A DNA stretch of 53,874 nucleotides from Planctomycetota bacterium (lineage in GTDB: Bacteria > Planctomycetota > GCA-002687715 > DRQF01). Positions within the stretch are counted from its first letter, which is position 1. Each line of letters opens with the position of its first letter. The notes below the pieces were generated by a model. That model ran no database searches. It had not been told where the DNA came from and was given only the letters and a program-made list of their open reading frames with translations. Shown here in pieces: positions 34,883 to 44,256 of this stretch. A program made the position numbers and the translations under genes. The stretch spans positions 1-53,874 of the forward strand of contig JAZGFI010000052.1 in assembly GCA_036479435.1 (NCBI GenBank), given 5' to 3'.

Positions 34883-36115
34883 ATGCTCGCGCGACTTTCA
34901 ATTCTCTGCTTTTTGGCTTGCTGTACTCTCAGTTTGGGCCAAGAAGTGGCGACTCCGGCGAAGGCTCCCCAACAAGATGACAAAGTGCTCACGCGCGACC
35001 ATCGTCTTCGCATTGCGAGCTGGAACATGCTCAACCTCTTTGACAACTTCGACGAGCCCAACAAGCCAGACGAGGGCACGCCTCCGAAGTCCTTCGCCGA
35101 AATGCAGTTTTTGGCGAAAGCCATTGATGATCTCGATGCCGATATATTGGGAGTTCAAGAAGTTGAGAATCGCGCCGTCCTCGAGGCCCTCAACGCGCAC
35201 TTGAAGCGCCCTTTTGTTTACGTCGAGTTGATCGAGGGGAATGACCATCGCGGCATCGATGTCGGCTTGCTGTCGCGTCTGCCGGTAGTCCGGGCCGCGA
35301 GCCACCGCCAACTCGACTTGGAGACCAACCACCGCTTCGCCCGCGATTTCCCCCTGTTTCGCGTGCAGATCGCCAAGGGAGAATTCATCGAAGTCGGTGT
35401 CCTGCACTTGAAGTCAAAGCGCGGCAAGGCGAGCGAGTCCAATGCTTGGCGTCGCGCCGAAGCGGACGGCATCCGGCGCATTGTGGCCCGACAACGCAAG
35501 CTCGAACCGAAGGTCCCGGTGGTCATCATGGGAGACTTCAACGACACCCGCGAAGCCAAAACCCTTGAACCGATTTTCGCCACTTTCAACGACCCCACGA
35601 AAATCGTGCCGGCCGCTGAACGCTACAGTTTTTCCTTTCGAGGAAACCGCGAACAAATCGACTTCATCTTGGGGTTGGGCATGCCGCGCGCCGACAAAGC
35701 CTACTTCTTACAGCGCGCCGACAGCCCTTCCGACCACAGCCCCGTCATCGTCGACTTCGCTGTGACCTCAACTCTGAAGCGGCTCGAGAGTCCAGCCCTT
35801 GGTCCACCCAAAGCTCCGAAGCGTCCGCGCATCAAAGCCAAAGACCTGGCAAGCGCCAAGAAGCACTTCCTTCAAGAAGTCGAGATCGAAGGCATCGTGG
35901 TGAAAGTCCACCACTACAAAGGTGGCGCGGCGGCTTTGAACTTCGACCGCGATCACGCAAGTGCCGTCGTCGTCTATGTGCCCAAAGAAGCCGTGGCTCG
36001 CATCGGGAAGGTCGACGACCTCATCGGCAAGAACGTGAAGGTACGCGGACCCATCTCCAAACACCGCCGCACCTATCAGATCCGCTTGACGCGACCGTCT
36101 CAGCTCGATCGCTAG
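34883..36115 (+). CDS. Secreted endonuclease/exonuclease/phosphatase with C-terminal OB-fold-like domain
   Basis: RIASWNMLNLFD, LGVQEVEN, RGIDVGLLSR, HLKSK, MGDFND, IDFI, SDHSPV; C-terminal VEIEGIV..LNFD..GKNVKVRGPI..QIRLTRPSQL. Confidence 0.88.
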   Translation: MLARLSILCFLACCTLSLGQEVATPAKAPQQDDKVLTRDHRLRIASWNMLNLFDNFDEPNKPDEGTPPKSFAEMQFLAKAIDDLDADILGVQEVENRAVLEALNAHLKRPFVYVELIEGNDHRGIDVGLLSRLPVVRAASHRQLDLETNHRFARDFPLFRVQIAKGEFIEVGVLHLKSKRGKASESNAWRRAEADGIRRIVARQRKLEPKVPVVIMGDFNDTREAKTLEPIFATFNDPTKIVPAAERYSFSFRGNREQIDFILGLGMPRADKAYFLQRADSPSDHSPVIVDFAVTSTLKRLESPALGPPKAPKRPRIKAKDLASAKKHFLQEVEIEGIVVKVHHYKGGAAALNFDRDHASAVVVYVPKEAVARIGKVDDLIGKNVKVRGPISKHRRTYQIRLTRPSQLDR

Positions 36116-36139: not shown

Positions 36140-37300
36140 TTAGGGCTGGTGATTGGGTTTGCCTCGATGTTCTAACTCGACGCGCCGTCTACGCAGTTCC
36201 TCTTCGAGCTGTACGGCTTTTGGCAGTTTGGTGTGATATTCGCTGGCGAGCATGGTGTTCTCGATGCCCTGCATGGAGTACTCCGCCAGCTCTTTTCTCT
36301 TCGCGACGCAAAGGATGAGTCCGACCGGCGGGTTTTCATCGTCGTGAGTCCAATGTCGGCGCGCGTAGTTCAAATAGACGTTCATCTGTCCGACATCGGC
36401 GTGTGAAAATTCATCGAGTTTTAGGTCCACGATGACGAGGCATCGCAGTCGCCGGTGGTAGAGCAGAAGGTCGACTCGAAACCAAGTGTCGTCGATTCGA
36501 AGCCGCTTTTGTCGGCCGACGAAAGCGAAATCTCCACCAAGCTCGAGCAGGAAACTCTCGAGGTGCCGGATTAGAGCCTCCTCAAGATCGCTCTCGGAGT
36601 ATTCATCTTTGAGGTCTAAGAACTCGAGCAAGAGGGGATCTCTGATCTCCTCTTCGGGTGAGATGGCGTCTCCTTCTTTCGCCTTTTCACCTCTGATGAG
36701 GACCCTTGTCTTTTCTCTCGATAGTGCGGCGCGCTCAAAGAACTGGCTTCCGATTTGGCGTCTGAGTTGCCGGATGGTCCAGCCGCCTGCCAGGGCTTCG
36801 CGCTCGTAGAACTCTCGCGCCCCGCTGTTCTTGACTCGAATTAGCTCGACGTAGTGGGACCAGGGGAGGGGGAATGTTCGGCCAGCAAGAAAGCCACCAG
36901 AAGATTCGGCAGACACTGTCTGCCGAATCTCGTAAGTGCTTTCGGAAGAGCGACTTGATTCATGTCTGCTGACATGCGGCCAAGTCGCATAGAACCGCCG
37001 CATCAATCGCAAGTTTCTTATGGAGAAGCCACGACCATAGGCGGTGCCGAGATCTTCGGCCAAGTTCTCCAAGAGTGCCTGTCCATATTCCGCGCGCTCT
37101 TTGCCTCCTTGGACATACTAGACAATATGGCGGCCAATCTCCCAATAGGTGGTGGCAATGAAAGTGTTAATCGCTCTCGCGCTCGCCCGCCGTCCCGATT
37201 CGAGCGCCAAGGTAATGACGCTGAGGACATCCTCGTAACCGTCAGGTTTTGAAACGAGCTTCTTTGTCACTTCGCCTTCATTCTTCGTTTCGCTTCTCAT
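36140..37300 (-). pseudogene. YhcG/DUF1016 PDDEXK nuclease interrupted by an in-frame TAG
   Basis: Continuous frame YWEIGRHIV*YVQGGKERAEYG...GRGFS.RNL..MRRFY..LPWSHY..RDPLLLEFL..ELGGDFAFVGRQKR..DLLLYHR..DLKL..GQMNVY. TAG at 37118-37120 joins ORFs 37118..37300 and 36140..37072. Confidence 0.85.
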
Positions 37301-37466
37301 GAGCGGACTCTTGCTTCGGCATATCTACAGACGAAGGCTTGAGGTGGCGGTCCGGAAAATACCTGGATGAATAGTGAATTTCCTCAATCGCCACGGATGT
37401 TCAATTCATCGTCGGTCTTGCTGAGGTCGGTTGACGGCATCGCCTTGTACCCCGAAGCTGTTCATT

Positions 37467-38093
37467 GTGAACCCCTTTGTACCGCCTGACCAAGAACTAC
37501 TGCGCCGGCTCGCCCGCGGCGACGAGGCCGCCTTCGAGCAGCTCTACGCTCGGCACCGGGTCTTTGTCCTGAGCATTGCCCGGCGCTACACGCAGCAAGA
37601 AGAAGATGCGCTGGATGTGATGCAGGAGGTTTTCTCCTGGCTGATCCGCCGGGCGGGTTCCATCGATTTGCGGGCAAAGTTGACTACCTTGTTGTTCCCC
37701 GTCATTCGGCATCAGGCCATCGACCTTTTACGTCGGCGGCGGAGGCGGGCGGAGACGACGGCAGGGTCTTTTGACCAAGAGGGTGAAAGCGGATTCCTCG
37801 ATCAGTTTCCCGCGCCACCGCAAAGGCCCGAACCTGGGAGTTCCCGCGAGGCCTTAGCCGAGGTGCTGGCACGGCTTCCCAGTGCCCAGCGCGAAGTGCT
37901 GCTGCTGAGATTTGTCGATGGTCTTGAACTTGACGAGATCGCGGCGGCATTAGCTGTTCCCGCCGGGACGGTTAAGTCCCGCTTGCACTACGCGCTGGCG
38001 CAGCTGCGCGAAGACCCCTTCACCCGGCGTTACTTCGAAAAAAAAGAAAGTTCGAACCCGCAGGACAATCTCGACCCTGGAGAGTCGTTATGA
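37467..38093 (+). CDS. ECF RNA polymerase sigma factor
   Basis: DQELL..GDEAAFEQLYARH, DALDVMQEVF (region 2), LPSAQREVLLLRFVDGLELDEIAAALAVPAGTVKSRLHYA (region 4). Start uncertain (37431 or 37467). Confidence 0.92.
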   Translation: MNPFVPPDQELLRRLARGDEAAFEQLYARHRVFVLSIARRYTQQEEDALDVMQEVFSWLIRRAGSIDLRAKLTTLLFPVIRHQAIDLLRRRRRRAETTAGSFDQEGESGFLDQFPAPPQRPEPGSSREALAEVLARLPSAQREVLLLRFVDGLELDEIAAALAVPAGTVKSRLHYALAQLREDPFTRRYFEKKESSNPQDNLDPGESL

Positions 38094-38680
38094 ACGAAAA
38101 CTCTGAATCCCGAGCTCAGCCCCGCGACCCCCATGCCGGGTCGGAGAGCCTTCCAGAAGCGCTCCAGGCGGACCTGGCGGCCTTGTGGGCCGATCCTGCG
38201 ACGGATGGCGGGGGTGAGCAGGAGCGATTGCTTCGGCGTCAACTCAGGGCTGAGCTGGCGAAACGGTGCGGAGCGCGGCGGAGATTTGCTTGGGCCCGCG
38301 GCGGCCTCGTGGCTGCGAGCCTTTTGGCGGCGATCAGCGTCGGTCTTTACTTCATGCCGGGATCGAACTTGGCTCCGAATGCGAAGCCTGCCGCGGGTCC
38401 AGACCAGATCCTGGCCGATGCCTCCCTCAGCCCCGGGCAAAACGTTAGCTCGCCGCTGGATCGCGATGGGAACGGCCGAGTCGACATTCGAGACGCCTAC
38501 GTTCTCGCCCGGAGTTTGAGGTCCGCTGACCAAGGCGAAAATTTGAGCGTGGATTTGAGTGCTGACTTGAATAAGAATTCAAGTGCTGACTTGAATGGCG
38601 ACGGCAAAGTTGACCGCTTGGATGTTGAACTCATTGCCAAAGCGGCGGTGAAACTCGACGATGTGGAGCAAGGGAAATGA
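38090..38680 (+). CDS. Putative single-pass anti-sigma factor with extracytoplasmic dockerin-type double Ca-binding loop
   Basis: ATGA-coupled to the sigma gene; helical N-terminus, RRR, TM (GGLVAASLLAAISVGLYF), then DRDGNGRVDIRDAYVLAR and DLNGDGKVDRLDVELIAK. Confidence 0.75.
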   Translation: MNENSESRAQPRDPHAGSESLPEALQADLAALWADPATDGGGEQERLLRRQLRAELAKRCGARRRFAWARGGLVAASLLAAISVGLYFMPGSNLAPNAKPAAGPDQILADASLSPGQNVSSPLDRDGNGRVDIRDAYVLARSLRSADQGENLSVDLSADLNKNSSADLNGDGKVDRLDVELIAKAAVKLDDVEQGK

Positions 38681-39150
38681 TGGCGCGACTTCATTTCACA
38701 CTGGCTTTGATCGCCTTTTTCGCCGTCGCGCCTGAGCTTACGGTCGCTGATTCGATGGGGACGACGGCTGCGGTTTCCAGAGCCGCGGCTCGTCCCGAGT
38801 TCCGAAGCTACGGACTCTACCTCGATACCCATGACGCCGGACTAGGCGCCTGGCAAGTTGAAGTCGTCGATCTTGCCGCCAAGTCTCGGCTCGTCGGGAT
38901 CGAAGGTGGCGAACACCGCGCCTTTGCGCAACCTGCGTTCTATGATCCAAAGGCACTACAAGGCGCGCGCATCGTGCTCGCCGCCTTTGCACCCGATGAC
39001 GAACTGCCGCGTGGAAAAACGCGCGTCGCCACCCTTCACCTTCGCGTCGATGCCGACGCGCCTCCCGAATTCAAACTTCGTCTGATCGCCGCGGTCGACG
39101 CCCTTGGAAACGACATCGATGCCGAACTCGAAATCCGTCAGGAGTCCTAA
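38677..39150 (+). CDS. Secreted cohesin-like beta-sandwich protein
   Basis: Signal peptide; YGLYLD..GLGAWQVEV..RLVGIEGG..RIVLAAF..GKTRVATLHLRV..AVDALGNDI resembles the cohesin strand pattern (by eye); ATGA-coupled. Confidence 0.55.
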   Translation: MMARLHFTLALIAFFAVAPELTVADSMGTTAAVSRAAARPEFRSYGLYLDTHDAGLGAWQVEVVDLAAKSRLVGIEGGEHRAFAQPAFYDPKALQGARIVLAAFAPDDELPRGKTRVATLHLRVDADAPPEFKLRLIAAVDALGNDIDAELEIRQES

Positions 39151-39151
39151 G

Positions 39152-41314
39152 ATGGCTTGCTCTGGAAGAACAAGGCCCCTGTATTTACTTTTTGCGGCCC
39201 TCGGTTTGTGGGTGCTCAGTTCCTGTGATTCGGCGTCGCGATCGGGCAGCCTTGATGGAGTTGCCGACAAGCGAGCGCCAGCGGGAGCCTACTATCGTCC
39301 CTCTAGCAAGGCTCACAAGCAGTTAATCGTCAGGTCTGCCATTGAATCCTCAGCGCCGAACCTTGAGGCTCGGTCTGGAATGCGCCGAAACGACGACGCG
39401 GAGCTCATGCAGAGGCTGTCGCCAAACGAGGAGATTTGGATCGTCGAGGACAGTCTGTTCGCAAAACGACGTCACGAGACTCGGCGCGAACATGGCTGCT
39501 ACGCGCAGCTCGATGACGGCGGTGGACAATCCGTCGCGATGCCGATCAAGCTAACCTCCGTTAGGGCCGAGATCGCGGGATTCACCGCTACCGTGGATCT
39601 CAAGCAGGTCTATCACAACCCCTACTCTCAAAAGATCAACCTGCAGTACCTGTTTCCCTTGCCGGTCGATGCCGCCGTCAGTGAGTTCGTCATGACGGTC
39701 GGGGAACGCCGCATCCGCGGCATTGTTCGTGAGAAAAAAGAAGCCGAACAACTCTACCGCGAAGCTCGCGACGCCGGATTGATCGTCGCCTTGTTGACCC
39801 AAGATCGGCCCAACATCTTCGAACAGAAGATCGCCAACATCGATCCCGGGCACGCCATCCAGATCGACTTGCGTTACTTTCAGACTCTTCCCTATCGAGA
39901 CGGTGGCTTCGAATTCAGTTTTCCCATGGTGGTGGGGCCGCGTTTTAATCCCAGTGGATCCAATGATCCGATTCACGCCGTCTCCAGAGGGACGCCGATT
40001 GGCGAAGACGACAAGGCGGTGGTCTACCTCAATAAGGGCGACTACAGCGGCCACCGCATTGAACTGTCGCTTGAGCTGAACGCGGGCGTCACGATCGAGG
40101 ACATCAAAAGCGAAACTCATCGCACCCAGATCGAACGGCGCTCCGACCGCCAAGCGCGCATCACCCTCGCCGCTTCTGACGATGTGCCAAACCGCGACTT
40201 TGTTCTGCGTTATCAAGTGGCCGGCAATCAGCTGAAAACCGGCATCGTGACGCAATCTGATTCGCGCGGAAGCTACTTTTCCTTGATGATGGTGCCGCCG
40301 CGCGACATCCAAGAAAAGTCACGTCGCCCCGTCGAGCTCGTCTTCGTCATCGACACCTCGGGAAGCATGCGCGGGCTGCCGATCGAAAAAGCCAAGGCGG
40401 CGATTAGACGGGCCCTACGGGCCTCGACCCCGTCCGACAGCTTTCGCATCATCCGATTCTCCGAGTCGGCTTCCAGCCTTGGCGAAGAAGCCCTGGCGGC
40501 GACGTCTGGGAACATTCGCCGCGCCATGACCTATCTCGATCGCTTGGAAGGTGGCGGCGGCACCCACATGCTCGCGGGTATTCGCGCGGCACTCGATCCC
40601 CCCGTTGAACGCGGCCGCCAACGCATTGTTTCCTTCATGACCGATGGTTTCATCGGCAACGAAGATCAGATTTTTCGCGCCGTGTACGCCAACGTGAAAG
40701 ACGCGCGAATCTTCTCGTTTGGGATTGGTTCCTCGGTCAACCGACACCTCATCGAGGGGCTCGCTCGTTTAGGACGCGGGGCGGCGGCCTACGTTTCTTT
40801 GGACGGCGACGGGGGGAGGGCGGTCGACGCCTTCTACGATCGCATCCGCCATCCCGCGCTTGAAAACATTCAAATTAACTGGGGTGGTGCCGACGTCGTT
40901 GACGTCTACCCGCGCCGCATTCCCGATCTCTTCGTCGGCCGCCCGGTCGTCCTCACCGGCCGCTTCCGCGGCGGCCCACCGCGTTCGATCCAAGTCGAAG
41001 GTCGTCGCGAAGGCCGGCGCTGCGAGCAGCACATTTCCCTCGGCGGCAGAACTCAAGTCAACGCCGACCTCTCGAAGATCTGGGCCCGCCGCAAACTCGC
41101 CGACCTCGACTACGAAAGCGCCTTGGGCCGCGCCGGCGCCGACCGCGACGCCCTATCATTGGCTCTCGAGTACGGGATCGTCTCGCGCCTCACCGCCTTT
41201 TTGGCGGTCGACGCCAGCCGCAGGACCTTCGGCCATCCCGGCCCCACCATTCCCGTCGCCGTCCCGTTGCCCGAGGGCCTTCAACCCGGCTCGGTGCTCA
41301 ACCGTCGGCGCTAG
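39152..41314 (+). CDS. VIT and vWA domain lipoprotein (inter-alpha-trypsin-inhibitor-like)
   Basis: Lipobox LSSC; VIT (V.AEIAG..A.V..KQ.YHNP..YLFPLP..AAV..RPNIF..IANIDPG); vWA MIDAS IDTSGS, GGT, TDG, FSFGIG; WARRK..Y.IVS.LTAFLAVD; AGGAG RBS. Confidence 0.9.
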   Translation: MACSGRTRPLYLLFAALGLWVLSSCDSASRSGSLDGVADKRAPAGAYYRPSSKAHKQLIVRSAIESSAPNLEARSGMRRNDDAELMQRLSPNEEIWIVEDSLFAKRRHETRREHGCYAQLDDGGGQSVAMPIKLTSVRAEIAGFTATVDLKQVYHNPYSQKINLQYLFPLPVDAAVSEFVMTVGERRIRGIVREKKEAEQLYREARDAGLIVALLTQDRPNIFEQKIANIDPGHAIQIDLRYFQTLPYRDGGFEFSFPMVVGPRFNPSGSNDPIHAVSRGTPIGEDDKAVVYLNKGDYSGHRIELSLELNAGVTIEDIKSETHRTQIERRSDRQARITLAASDDVPNRDFVLRYQVAGNQLKTGIVTQSDSRGSYFSLMMVPPRDIQEKSRRPVELVFVIDTSGSMRGLPIEKAKAAIRRALRASTPSDSFRIIRFSESASSLGEEALAATSGNIRRAMTYLDRLEGGGGTHMLAGIRAALDPPVERGRQRIVSFMTDGFIGNEDQIFRAVYANVKDARIFSFGIGSSVNRHLIEGLARLGRGAAAYVSLDGDGGRAVDAFYDRIRHPALENIQINWGGADVVDVYPRRIPDLFVGRPVVLTGRFRGGPPRSIQVEGRREGRRCEQHISLGGRTQVNADLSKIWARRKLADLDYESALGRAGADRDALSLALEYGIVSRLTAFLAVDASRRTFGHPGPTIPVAVPLPEGLQPGSVLNRRR

Positions 41315-41357
41315 AAGGCCTCAGGCTAGGCTTCTATCGGGAAGTCTTGTTAGCATG

Positions 41358-41376
41358 TAATTAACAGCTAATTAAC
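41358..41376. promoter_or_regulatory. Tandem TAATTAAC repeats upstream of the TA operon (putative operator)
   Basis: TAATTAAC-AGC-TAATTAAC, 11-bp period with palindromic TAATTA cores, 16 nt before the antitoxin ATG. Confidence 0.5.
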
Positions 41377-41392
41377 TGTGACGAGGGTCCCC

Positions 41393-41686
41393 ATGATTCA
41401 ACCCAGCAACATCCATTCATTGACCGACTTTGTGCGCCGGGCGCGGGAGCATAGTGATCGCTTGCAAGAAAGTGGGAAACCAGAGGTCCTTACCGTCAAT
41501 GGCAGTGCCAAGCTTGTCGTTCAATCGGCGGCGGCCTACGAGATGCTGATGGACCGGCTCGAGGAATTGGAAAGCCTGGCAGGAATTCGCCATGGTCTTG
41601 CATCCATGAAGCGTAGTGAGGGGCGTCCCGCGGTCGAAGTTCTCGACGAGCTCCGAGCGGAGTTTGATATCCCTCGAAACGCATGA
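41393..41686 (+). CDS. Phd/YefM-family antitoxin
   Basis: IHSLTDF.R..LQESGKPEVLTVNGSAKLVVQSAAAYE..GIRHGLASMKRSEGRP. Confidence 0.85.
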   Translation: MIQPSNIHSLTDFVRRAREHSDRLQESGKPEVLTVNGSAKLVVQSAAAYEMLMDRLEELESLAGIRHGLASMKRSEGRPAVEVLDELRAEFDIPRNA

Positions 41687-42033
41687 GGCCCAAGTCCAGG
41701 TCCTATCAAGTCATCATCGAACCCCAGGCCGAGCAGGATTTACGTCAACGCTAACGCGAGATCGCAGAAGATTCGCCATTCAACGGAGTTCGTTGGTTCA
41801 ATCGTTTGAACAAGGCAATTCTGAACCTGGGCGAGCTTCCATCGCGTTACCCCTGTGCACCCGAAAACCTCAAGGCGCGGGGATTCGAAATTCGCAATCT
41901 CATCATTCGAAACTACCGTGTCATCTTCACGATCACAGAGGAATCGGTGCATGTCCTTCATGTCCGGCACGGCGCGAAAATGACAGCCGAGAATGATGAA
42001 TTGGAGATGCCCGGCGAGACTGGCGCCACTTAG
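41683..42033 (+). pseudogene. ParE/RelE-family toxin with premature TAA at codon 24
   Basis: ATGA-coupled; YQVIIEPQAEQDLRQR*REIAEDSP..RW...I..LGELPSRYPCAPE..EIRNLIIRNYRVIFTITEESVHVLHVRHGA; TAA at 41752-41754. Confidence 0.85.
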
Positions 42034-42180
42034 ACATTCCTGGCGCCAAGGTTCGCGAACGGCTCGATTCGGCTACAGGGCGCCGAATCTGATAAGCTTC
42101 AGCGACACCGACTTTCGCGATAATTCGAGTTCGAAGCGACGTGCTTGGCACGTTCGCCTTGTCGGTGCTGGCCGGAGAAA

Positions 42181-44256
42181 ATGGCGATGAGAAGTTTGAA
42201 GATGGCGGCGGGGCTGCTGTTGGCAGTCGCGGCCTTTTTTTGTCTGGAGCAAAGTGCTGCGGATGAGGGCATGTGGACTTTTGACCGCTTGCCCAAAAAG
42301 CTCCTGAAGGAAAAGTACGGTTTTGAGCTGACGGACAAGTGGGCACAACACGTCCAGCTGGCGTCGGTGCGATTCAATAACGGCGGGAGCGGTTCCTTTG
42401 TTTCGCCCAACGGCCTGGTGATGACCAATCATCACGTGGGGCTTGATGTCATCCATAAACTCTCCAGCGCTGAGAGCGACTATGTTCGCGATGGATTCTT
42501 GGCCTTGCGGCGAGATGAAGAGATTCGCTGCCAGGATCTTGAGTTGAACCAGCTGATCTCGATTACGGATGTGACGGAGCGCGTTCGATTAGCCGCGACC
42601 AAGAAGACGGCTGAGGAATCGGCCAAAGCCCGTCGCGCGGAGATCTCCCGCATTGAGAAAGAAGAAAGCGACCGCACAGGGCTGCGTTGTGACGTGGAGT
42701 CTTTCTACGGCGGGGATCAGTTTTGCGTCTACCGCTACAAAAAGTACACCGACGTTCGATTTGTGTTTGCGCCGGAAGAATCTGTTGCTGCTTTCGGAGG
42801 GGATCGCGACAACTTTTGCTACCCGCGTTGGTGCTTGGATTGCGCGTTCTTCCGCGTCTACGAAGACGGCAAGCCCGCTAAGACTCCGGAGTACTTCGCT
42901 TGGAGCCGTGACGGTGCCAAAAAGGACGAGTTGGTTTTCGTTTCCGGAAATCCCGGCAGCACGGGGCGCTACGAGACCGCGATTGCCTGTCGCTTCAATC
43001 GCGACCTTTTTTATCCCGCCGTCTTAAAGCTTGTCAAAAGCAACCTCTCCGGTCTTGAAGCCTACGCCAAGCGTGGAGCGGAAGAAAAGCGTCAAGCAGC
43101 GGACGCTATTGCCTCTTGGGCCAACTCATTGAAAGCCTACACGGGCTACCTTCAGGGCCTCGAAGAAGGCCGGGTCATGAAGAAGATCGAAGCTCGTGAC
43201 GCGATGCTCTTGCATCGAGCCGGTGACGAGCGGGCGGCGGTTCAGGCCGCCTATAACGAAGTCGAGGAGGCCTTTCGCAACTACAAACAGTTCGCGCGGC
43301 AGCGTCTCTTCTCACGCCTTGAAGGTCGCTTGGCACAGATGGCGCGGCAGATGGTCACCTTAGTCCGCCAGCTGGAGCTTCCCAATGAAGAACGCAAAGC
43401 TCCCTACCGCGAGAGCAGCTTGGAGTCGACAGAGCTCGGGCTTTTCTCTTCGGCGCCAATCTATATCGATCTTGAGTTGGCAGCACTCCATTCGGGCTTG
43501 ACCTTGGCGCATCGTGAGCTTGGCAAAAAGGACCTATTCGTCGCGGCCTGTTTGGGCCAGAGCTCATCCGAAACCGTCCTTACTGCCTTGAAGAACACTC
43601 GCGTCGGGGATGCTGCTTTTAGGCGCCAGCTAGTGAAAGGCGGGGTCAAGGCGGTCGAAGCGTCGAAGGACCCGATCATCCAACTAATCTTGGCCGCCGA
43701 CCCGGTCATCGAGGGTTTGGCGAAACGCCGAGAGGTCGAGTTCTTCCAGTTGTTTCGGGAGGCCGAAGCGAAGCTGTCGGAGTTGAGGCGGCGCATCATC
43801 GGCCGGCAGGGCGCTCCGGACGCCAACTTCACCCTGCGTTTGTCCTTTGGCGTCGTGAAGGGCTACGAACTCGGGACTACCGATGTTCCCCACACGACGT
43901 CAGCTTGGGGACTTTTCGAACGCCATCATTGCATGGAAGGTGTCGATCCCTATTCCTTGCCGAAAACTTGGCAGAAAGCTCGCACCAAGATCGATCTGGA
44001 CACGCATTTCAACTTCGTGTGTACGGCGGACATCATTGGCGGCAACTCGGGGAGCCCGGTCCTCAACCGCCGCGCCGAAATCGTCGGGTTGATCTTTGAT
44101 GGCAATATTCAAAGCCTCTCCAACCGCTTCGTCTTCGACGAGAAAGTGGCGAGGTCGGTCTCGGTTGACAGCGAGATCATCATCGAGGCCTTACGTCAGG
44201 TGTACGGTGCATCAGGACTCGCCGATGAGCTCGAGGGCCGAAAGACCTTCCGTTGA
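42181..44256 (+). CDS. S46-family dipeptidyl peptidase
   Basis: Signal peptide then DEGMW; GSGSFVSPNGLVMTNHHV, FGGDRDNF.YPR, GNPGST.R, PDANFTLRLSFG, DIIGGNSGSP, LIFDGN. Confidence 0.93.
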   Translation: MAMRSLKMAAGLLLAVAAFFCLEQSAADEGMWTFDRLPKKLLKEKYGFELTDKWAQHVQLASVRFNNGGSGSFVSPNGLVMTNHHVGLDVIHKLSSAESDYVRDGFLALRRDEEIRCQDLELNQLISITDVTERVRLAATKKTAEESAKARRAEISRIEKEESDRTGLRCDVESFYGGDQFCVYRYKKYTDVRFVFAPEESVAAFGGDRDNFCYPRWCLDCAFFRVYEDGKPAKTPEYFAWSRDGAKKDELVFVSGNPGSTGRYETAIACRFNRDLFYPAVLKLVKSNLSGLEAYAKRGAEEKRQAADAIASWANSLKAYTGYLQGLEEGRVMKKIEARDAMLLHRAGDERAAVQAAYNEVEEAFRNYKQFARQRLFSRLEGRLAQMARQMVTLVRQLELPNEERKAPYRESSLESTELGLFSSAPIYIDLELAALHSGLTLAHRELGKKDLFVAACLGQSSSETVLTALKNTRVGDAAFRRQLVKGGVKAVEASKDPIIQLILAADPVIEGLAKRREVEFFQLFREAEAKLSELRRRIIGRQGAPDANFTLRLSFGVVKGYELGTTDVPHTTSAWGLFERHHCMEGVDPYSLPKTWQKARTKIDLDTHFNFVCTADIIGGNSGSPVLNRRAEIVGLIFDGNIQSLSNRFVFDEKVARSVSVDSEIIIEALRQVYGASGLADELEGRKTFR

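Follow-up and report, generated by a model that had tools for sequence, protein, structure and literature searches.

Here we describe a four-gene unit in a contig of a Planctomycetota bacterium (GenBank assembly GCA_036479435.1, contig JAZGFI010000052.1). The stretch of 53,874 nucleotides considered here is referred to below as the window. Four co-oriented open reading frames (ORFs) on the + strand, at 37431/37467..41314, encode an extracytoplasmic function (ECF) sigma factor, a single-pass membrane protein that ends in a dockerin, a small secreted protein with a predicted cohesin fold, and a lipoprotein with VIT and vWA domains. They are numbered genes 1 to 4 in this order. Genes 1 and 2 share an ATGA at 38090-38093, genes 2 and 3 share another at 38677-38680, and genes 3 and 4 meet at a TAA-G-ATG at 39148-39154. 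The original prediction, made from the sequence of the window, had named four genes with overlaps at 38090 and 38677 and a 1-nt gap before 39152, and all of these were found among the ORFs and their junctions. Because of the ATGA overlaps, the sigma factor, gene 2, and gene 3 are expected to be translationally coupled. The module is real and conserved, and it is apparently undescribed in print. We read it as a conserved ECF sigma module whose membrane protein exposes only a dockerin. The dockerin is predicted to plug into the product of the adjacent gene, the cohesin-fold protein, and we consider the chances of this reading to be about even.

The longest ORF of gene 1 (37431..38093, + strand) begins at a TTG at 37431, with an in-frame GTG at 37467. 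GTG 37467 is the likely start of the sigma factor, since alignments with homologues begin at residue 20 of the long form. The protein matches the Pfam families Sigma70_r2 (E = 7.5e-14), r4 (E = 4.2e-15), and Sigma70_ECF (E = 1.7e-9), as well as NCBIfam TIGR02937 with 109.8 bits against a cut-off of 42.9. It contains sigma-70 regions 2 and 4 only, as is characteristic of the ECF (group 4) sigma-70 factors.

Gene 2 (38090..38680, + strand) encodes a protein of 196 amino acids with a cytoplasmic N-terminal region of about 65 residues, one transmembrane (TM) helix, and a tail in the periplasm that consists of little more than the dockerin. The TM segment is the single hydrophobic stretch of the protein, GGLVAASLLAAISVGLYFM at residues 71-89 (38300..38356; hydropathy maximum 1.89). 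It is preceded by an RRRF at residues 63-66 (38276-38287), and by the positive-inside rule the N-terminus would therefore lie inside and the C-terminus outside. A cytoplasmic helix, an RRR, and one TM segment had been proposed for this protein, and both the RRRF and the single TM segment are present. All 79 dockerin proteins in the homologous loci described below likewise have one hydrophobic segment, which in most of them begins about 60-100 residues in.

Dockerins are recognized by a duplicated Ca-binding loop of 12 residues that has Asp or Asn at positions 1, 3, 5, 9, and 12, with a helix after each of the two copies. The C-terminus of gene 2 matches Pfam Dockerin_1 (PF00404) at residues 124-184 (38459..38641), with an E-value of 1.2e-6 and 29 bits against a cut-off of 22.9. 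Within this type I module the two loops, DRDGNGRVDIRD (residues 124-135; 38459-38494) and DLNGDGKVDRLD (residues 167-178; 38588-38623), are 12 residues long each, and both carry the full set of Ca-ligand positions. Weak matches to EF-hand families of Pfam were obtained besides Dockerin_1. The two dockerin-type Ca loops at the end of gene 2, and the Dockerin_1 match expected of them, were thus correctly anticipated. Dockerin_1 was also matched in 13 of 14 aligned homologues. Counting strict dockerin loops, 43 of the 79 homologues have two and 36 have one, and the dockerin match ends 10 residues or fewer from the C-terminus in 72 of them (the remaining seven include two fusions and two over-called ORFs). 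Compared with its homologues, the dockerin of the window carries about 10 extra residues between the two repeats, and this insertion holds a small internal repeat (…VDLSADLNKNSSADLNGDG; 38510-38590).

The position of gene 2 is that of a class I anti-sigma factor: the gene directly follows the sigma gene, its start overlaps the sigma stop in an ATGA, and its product has a single TM segment with the N-terminus predicted inside. The same placement is seen in 60 of the 80 loci that we compared. We therefore refer to the dockerin protein as a putative anti-sigma factor that would hold the sigma factor by its short cytoplasmic N-terminus, an assignment drawn from genomic context and from one homologue (locus L014) bearing the HxxxCxxC zinc motif of anti-sigma factors. 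HxxxCxxC occurs in 1 of the 79 homologues, and zf-HC2 was matched weakly (E = 0.0069) in 1 of 14.

Gene 3 (38677..39150, + strand) encodes a protein of 157 amino acids with an N-terminal signal peptide and no lipobox Cys, in agreement with the small secreted protein that had been predicted. The AlphaFold model of gene 3 has a mean predicted local distance difference test (pLDDT) score of 85.4, with values of 84-98 per ten-residue block from residue 41 onward and above 90 for 105 residues. When the model was compared to the PDB using Foldseek, the 22 best listed rows were all cohesin or cohesin-like, with 6kgf_A as the best (E = 9.9e-4, probability 1.00). An independent VIA-align scan of 48,161 chains placed cohesins at ranks 1-20, with Z-scores of 9.9-7.2, 107-116 residues aligned, and root-mean-square deviations (rmsd) of 2.6-4.0. 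Unrelated folds begin at Z 6.9 or below in the same scan, including Cu-binding YcnI at Z 6.8. A structure search of the ESM Atlas returned Cohesin-bearing clusters at TM-scores of 0.67-0.76. The domain is a beta-sandwich at residues 38-157 (38788..39147), with 7 strands of at least three residues in the model compared to the nine-stranded jelly-roll of cohesin, a strand count that is approximate. By prediction, gene 3 is a cohesin fold, but by sequence it does not belong to Pfam Cohesin. The cohesin-like pattern reported in the original prediction therefore stands at the level of the fold, in AlphaFold, Foldseek, and VIA-align, with cohesins in the top Foldseek rows as expected, and it is invisible to sequence methods.

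The family to which gene 3 belongs yielded 25 homologues in a word-indexed search. An exhaustive search of 1.84 billion representatives gave 1080 clusters at E-values up to 0.001 and 827 at E-values up to 1e-10. Most homologues are 136-220 amino acids long and have an N-terminal signal-like segment. A search of NCBIfam with gene 3 returned no match. Over 81 sequences, the residues E76-G-G-E-H80 (EGGEH; 38902-38916), D90, R116, and A118 are invariant, and H121 is nearly so. The conserved residues lie on the strands at residues 70-76, 98-104, and 114-124.

Gene 4 has a longest ORF from a TTG at 39104, and the ATG at 39152 opens a protein of 720 amino acids (39152..41314, + strand). This protein has a signal peptide with a lipobox, LSSC (39215-39226), whose Cys is residue 25. 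It matches Pfam VIT (E = 2.1e-29; 39551-39877) followed by VWA_3 (E = 6.2e-20; vWA domain at about 40334-40786). The metal ion-dependent adhesion site (MIDAS) has the pattern DxSxS...T...D, with DTSGS at residues 401-405 (40352-40366), GGGT at 468 (T471), and MTDG at 496 (D498). A lipoprotein with VIT and an intact vWA MIDAS had been predicted here, and the Pfam matches, the LSSC, and the DTSGS bear this out. Of 65 homologous VIT-vWA proteins, 63 have DxSxS and 46 have a lipobox-like signal, the latter as judged by a crude test. Gene 4 scores 474.7 bits against TIGR03788, a family of marine proteobacterial sortase targets, which is under the cut-off of 551.65. Its C-terminus (...GSVLNRRR) is without a hydrophobic sorting tail, and the protein has the N-terminal lipobox instead.

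The order of the four genes is conserved. In the loci of 8 relatives, the VIT-vWA gene lies 3' of gene 3 in all 8 and a sigma gene is present in 5. The dockerin protein is encoded upstream in six of these by BLAST and in a seventh by inspection (L015, a 299-residue form), and the eighth locus is cut by a contig end. A scan with one genome per species gave 178 loci that encode a relative; the best 80 were kept, and the counts that follow are over those 80. A dockerin ORF lies directly upstream of gene 3, or is fused to it, in 79/80, and the single miss (L052) begins at a contig end. The VIT-vWA gene is downstream in 73/80; four of the seven misses have less than 1.5 kb of room, and the other three (L062, L066, and L090) have room. 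A sigma gene is present in 66/80 loci and is on the same strand in 60/80. By title, 62 of the loci are from Planctomycetota (Planctomycetia, Phycisphaerae, and Brocadiia) and 12 from Verrucomicrobiota; the rest comprise one Krumholzibacteriia, one Binatia, and four with other labels, which may be unreliable (co-assembled bins). Since the arrangement recurs in 79/80 independent loci, it is far beyond chance, and chance or an ORF-calling artefact is rejected by this conservation. The gene order was expected to recur elsewhere, and it does so across phyla for the dockerin, VIT-vWA, and sigma genes alike. There is no fifth conserved gene in these loci: the flanking ORFs that formed clusters are antisense shadow ORFs or small groups in at most 18 loci.

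The two proposed partners are also matched in number. The genome of the window (5.47 Mb, 92% complete) has a single Dockerin_1 match, the one in gene 2, together with one copy of gene 3 and 0 matches to Pfam Cohesin (PF00963). With one Dockerin_1 and no Pfam Cohesin match at 92% completeness, the description of the organism as non-cellulosomal is upheld. Gene 3 is found in 2 of the 9 genomes of the window's family (G000, the genome of the window, and G003), and these are the only two of the nine with Dockerin_1, which occurs once in each and adjoins gene 3. Across the phylum, gene 3 was found in 36 of 301 sampled genomes, or about one in eight, always as one match. Two other genomes of the same phylum have many dockerins, with 34 Dockerin_1 matches in G034 and 12 in G035, many of them in very large ORFs. 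A single-protein query gave no match to gene 3 in either genome, and it seems that dockerins serve a different, scaffold-type purpose in these members of the phylum.

In three proteins the dockerin and the cohesin-fold domain are joined in a single ORF, in the order anti-sigma-like N-terminus, TM segment, dockerin, and cohesin-fold domain. These natural fusions are L046 (the same as P0058; 356 amino acids, L046:4296-5366), L062 (328 amino acids, L062:4476-5462), and P0037 (265 amino acids). All three have Dockerin_1 above the cut-off, and their linkers are about 12 to 60 residues long. All three come from metagenome assemblies, in which a frameshift error is possible for any one of them, and the L062 fusion has no downstream VIT-vWA gene. 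No longer or fused forms of gene 3 were found among 6216 candidates in a separate search, which was weak and missed the known 356-residue P0058. A model of the L062 dockerin-linker-cohesin segment (209 amino acids) has a mean pLDDT of 90.4 and a predicted TM-score (pTM) of 0.84, with no decoy control. The dockerin blocks score 93-96 and the linker 63-73, and the dockerin part of the alignment consists of 3 rows. Residues 5-67 of the model, with helices at 21-32 and 51-61, match solved dockerins (2ccl_B: Z 7.2, 58 residues aligned, rmsd 2.7), and residues 83-207 match cohesins (Z 9.7). The pTM of 0.84 despite a low-confidence linker suggests that the dockerin and cohesin domains in this model have a defined mutual placement.

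The genome of the window contains one other VIT protein, which is also linked to an ECF system (G000 contig C17, L098:3714-8105). There the VIT-vWA gene comes after the genes for an ECF sigma factor 36% identical to gene 1 and a zinc-containing anti-sigma (ZAS) factor of 401 amino acids that has HxxxCxxC, one TM segment, and a large periplasmic part. The VIT-vWA protein of this trio is 26% identical to gene 4 over 564 residues, and no dockerin or cohesin-fold protein is encoded there. This second trio, with its ZAS anti-sigma factor, links VIT-vWA proteins to ECF signaling, and systems that combine an ECF sigma factor, an anti-sigma factor, and a VIT-vWA protein may make up a wider class. The trio also fits the idea that in the four-gene module a dockerin and a free cohesin stand in for a periplasmic domain that is covalently attached, and that the cohesin-fold protein acts as an adaptor. 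A relationship between gene 3 and the periplasmic part of the L098 anti-sigma factor was considered and rejected (hhalign probability 0.06%). The MIDAS sites of vWA domains bind an acidic side chain of their ligand, and it is a matter of speculation that the EGGEH of gene 3 supplies such a side chain to gene 4.

Taken as a whole, the plug-and-socket pair of cellulosomes has likely been reused in this module for signaling across the cell membrane. The sigma factor would be held by the N-terminus of gene 2, and the cohesin-fold protein would bind or cap the Ca-folded dockerin tail on the other side of the membrane. By analogy to the action of RseB on RseA, the cohesin-fold protein could serve as a periplasmic co-regulator or adaptor. 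The VIT-vWA lipoprotein, via its MIDAS, likely senses a ligand or the state of the envelope. If the dockerin-cohesin contact were lost or changed, whether by displacement of the partner, loss of Ca, or engagement of the VIT-vWA protein, the anti-sigma factor would become open to regulated proteolysis and the sigma factor would be freed. The more specific proposal is that the Ca-dependent cohesin-dockerin contact is itself the sensing interface, with the periplasmic cohesin coupling the dockerin tail to the MIDAS-bearing VIT-vWA protein and a break in the contact releasing the ECF sigma factor; we regard this as possible and hold it somewhat short of an even chance.

Several observations weigh against a signaling role for the dockerin-cohesin pair, and some of them point to other readings. 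First, the N-terminus of gene 2 has no match to zf-HC2, RskA, or any other anti-sigma family in Pfam or NCBIfam. Second, 6/80 loci have about 4.7-4.9 kb of sequence upstream and no sigma gene nearby, and Pfam found no sigma factor among ten upstream ORFs of the sigma-less loci. The three downstream genes can therefore occur apart from the sigma gene. In two of these loci (L025:1080-3743 and L043:1711-4198), the place of the sigma factor directly before the dockerin protein is taken by an OmpR-type response regulator together with a histidine kinase, whose periplasmic loop is about 360 residues long. These observations would suit an anchoring role, in which the dockerin protein tethers an adhesion-type complex of the cohesin-fold and VIT-vWA proteins, either periplasmic or at the surface, and the sigma factor merely transcribes the operon and is controlled in some other way. 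The resemblance of the VIT-vWA protein to the surface protein family TIGR03788, although under its cut-off, is in line with this. On the other side, the sigma gene is found in 66/80 loci and is just upstream on the same strand in 60, with the stop/start overlap in the window. A mere anchor would have no need of a conserved cytoplasmic N-terminus of about 60 residues, yet the same N-terminal family is found in the sigma-less loci. The homologue with HxxxCxxC and the paralogous sigma/ZAS anti-sigma/VIT-vWA trio in the same genome also count against the anchoring role, which we consider unlikely.

Other points against the dockerin-cohesin pairing concern gene 3. Across 26 members of its family, no Pfam match was obtained at E-values up to 10, and by sequence it falls outside Pfam Cohesin (PF00963). 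A profile search of the PDB at E-values up to 10 gave two chance-level matches only, with no cohesin, and the identity of gene 3 to solved cohesins is just 9-15%. The invariant EGGEH is not accounted for by a simple cohesin role. Gene 3 could then be a common beta-sandwich with some other function, for example in binding metal through E76, E79, H80, D90, and H121, and it would bind the VIT-vWA protein and not the dockerin. The invariant EGGEH, D, R, and H do not correspond to any known signature of cohesins, and the YcnI match in the VIA-align scan is to a Cu-binding protein. However, cohesins hold ranks 1-20 of that unbiased search, about 3 Z units over the first unrelated folds, and the neighboring partner domain is a dockerin in 79/80 loci. 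A common beta-sandwich with no affinity for the dockerin is thus improbable in our view. About as improbable is a third reading, which the full Ca-ligand positions of both loops and the weak EF-hand matches might suggest: the dockerin would serve the anti-sigma factor as an EF-hand-like sensor of periplasmic Ca, with genes 3 and 4 as co-transcribed outputs that make no contact with it. Against this reading, the cohesin-fold protein adjoins the dockerin in 79/80 loci, three proteins carry the two as a fusion, both are single-copy in the genome, and the fusion model has a high pTM.

For the dockerin-cohesin pairing, this pTM is indirect as a measure of binding, since the model is control-free and its dockerin alignment has 3 rows, and it counts among the weaknesses of the case. 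The upstream regions are a further one. An ECF-type promoter-like motif, TGAACCTTT-N13/14-CACTT, was found in 9 loci only, some 100 nt before the start of the sigma gene (L018, L035, L045, L060, L071-L074, and L091; eight have Verrucomicrobiota titles and L018 is titled Bifidobacteriaceae). In the other 55 upstream regions, including that of the window, no dyad rose above shuffled controls (best 7 against null maxima of 5-8), so no regulon can be predicted. A scan of 37000-41800 in the window for sigma-70 promoters and terminators likewise gave nothing exceeding shuffles.

The genes that flank the module in the window look unrelated to it. Upstream are an exo/endonuclease/phosphatase-family protein (34883-36115) and, on the minus strand, a YhcG/DUF1016 PDDEXK nuclease (36140-37072). 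Downstream is an S46 dipeptidyl-peptidase (42145-44256). Between the module and the peptidase lies an ORF for a Phd/YefM-like antitoxin (41378-41686; Pfam E = 2.7e-5, under the cut-off), and 3' of it an ORF of 75 amino acids (41806-42033). The latter looks like an N-terminally truncated toxin gene, because it matches only positions 32-87 of the 89 in the ParE_toxin profile.

The cohesin-dockerin interaction is the textbook high-affinity pair of cellulosome assembly and a favorite tool of protein engineering. If the reading of the module as a signaling unit is correct, this would be the first case of a cohesin-dockerin pair that serves in signal transduction and not in assembly, and cohesin-dockerin would gain a second natural role, as a one-to-one pair on the anti-sigma factor. 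It would also be a new type of sensory input for ECF sigma factors, which are among the largest bacterial signaling families, in Planctomycetota and Verrucomicrobiota, phyla whose ECF systems have hardly been studied. The pathway would be widespread, occurring in about 1/8 of the sampled genomes of Planctomycetota, in Verrucomicrobiota, and in other phyla. The module places bacterial VIT-vWA proteins in a functional context for the first time, and does the same for an unannotated small secreted family of at least 1080 sequence clusters. It is small, self-contained, and single-copy, and its parts are easily expressed.

A full-text literature search returned no description of a dockerin-bearing anti-sigma factor with a cohesin-like partner. 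ECF groups associated with vWA domains are among the systems that come nearest to it. ECF226 and ECF289 have a vWA domain (with DUF3520) fused to the anti-sigma factor, and ECF255 and ECF28 have vWA proteins as neighbors (PMC7826278, Casas-Pastor et al. 2021). ECF226 occurs in Planctomycetes and Verrucomicrobia (PMC7826278). Like these four groups, as presented in the parts of PMC7826278 covered here, the module links an ECF sigma/anti-sigma pair to a vWA domain outside the cytoplasm; unlike in ECF226 and ECF289, its vWA is separate, in a VIT-vWA lipoprotein, and not fused to the anti-sigma factor. Dockerin is mentioned in the covered part of this classification only for the kinase-associated ECF217 (PMC7826278). 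No group with a dockerin anti-sigma factor and a cohesin-like protein appears in the part of the supplement covered, the remainder of which could hold one. The statement of the original prediction that no characterized system with this layout was known thus agrees with the literature searched and with that part of the ECF classification supplement.

Cohesins and dockerins have also been placed outside cellulosomes in freshwater Planctomycetes, where the "planctosome" hypothesis proposes a large surface scaffold for peptidases (PMC6461901). In the portion of that work covered here, the planctosome resembles the module in its non-cellulosomal use of cohesin and dockerin in Planctomycetes, and differs from it in having no sigma/anti-sigma unit. 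SigI-RsgI of Clostridium thermocellum, to the extent that its description was covered, is similar in linking an alternative sigma/anti-sigma pair to cellulosomes and in having an anti-sigma factor with an extracellular sensing module. In contrast to the module, RsgI senses polysaccharide through carbohydrate-binding module (CBM)-type modules and regulates cellulosome genes, and it has no dockerin-cohesin sensing interface.

The type I cohesin-dockerin pairs of cellulosomes (PDB 1ohz, 2ccl, and 6kgc) are similar to the module in both partners. Gene 2 has Dockerin_1 above the cut-off and two 12-residue Ca loops, the homologous dockerin model superimposes on 2ccl_B (Z 7.2), and gene 3 superimposes on type I cohesins (Z 9.9-9.1 over about 116 residues). 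Unlike the cellulosomal pairs, the module is without a scaffoldin, enzymes, or a cellulosome, and has one dockerin and one cohesin-fold protein per genome. Its dockerin is on a single-pass membrane protein encoded after an ECF sigma gene. Gene 3 is without sequence similarity to Pfam Cohesin and has its own invariant EGGEH, and its binding to the dockerin is predicted only.

In RpoE-RseA-RseB of E. coli and in AlgU-MucA-MucB, an ECF sigma factor is controlled by an adjacent single-pass anti-sigma factor, and a periplasmic protein binds the periplasmic part of the anti-sigma factor and modulates its proteolysis. The module similarly has an ECF sigma factor, an adjacent single-pass putative anti-sigma factor, and then a gene for a secreted protein. 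It has no RseA or RseB match in Pfam or NCBIfam, however, and the fold search with gene 3 gives cohesins. Any likeness of gene 3 to RseB or MucB is therefore a functional analogy only, because neither sequence nor fold membership is shared. The module also departs from RpoE-RseA-RseB in its periplasmic parts: the contact would be a Ca-dependent one between dockerin and cohesin, and the VIT-vWA lipoprotein is a fourth component.

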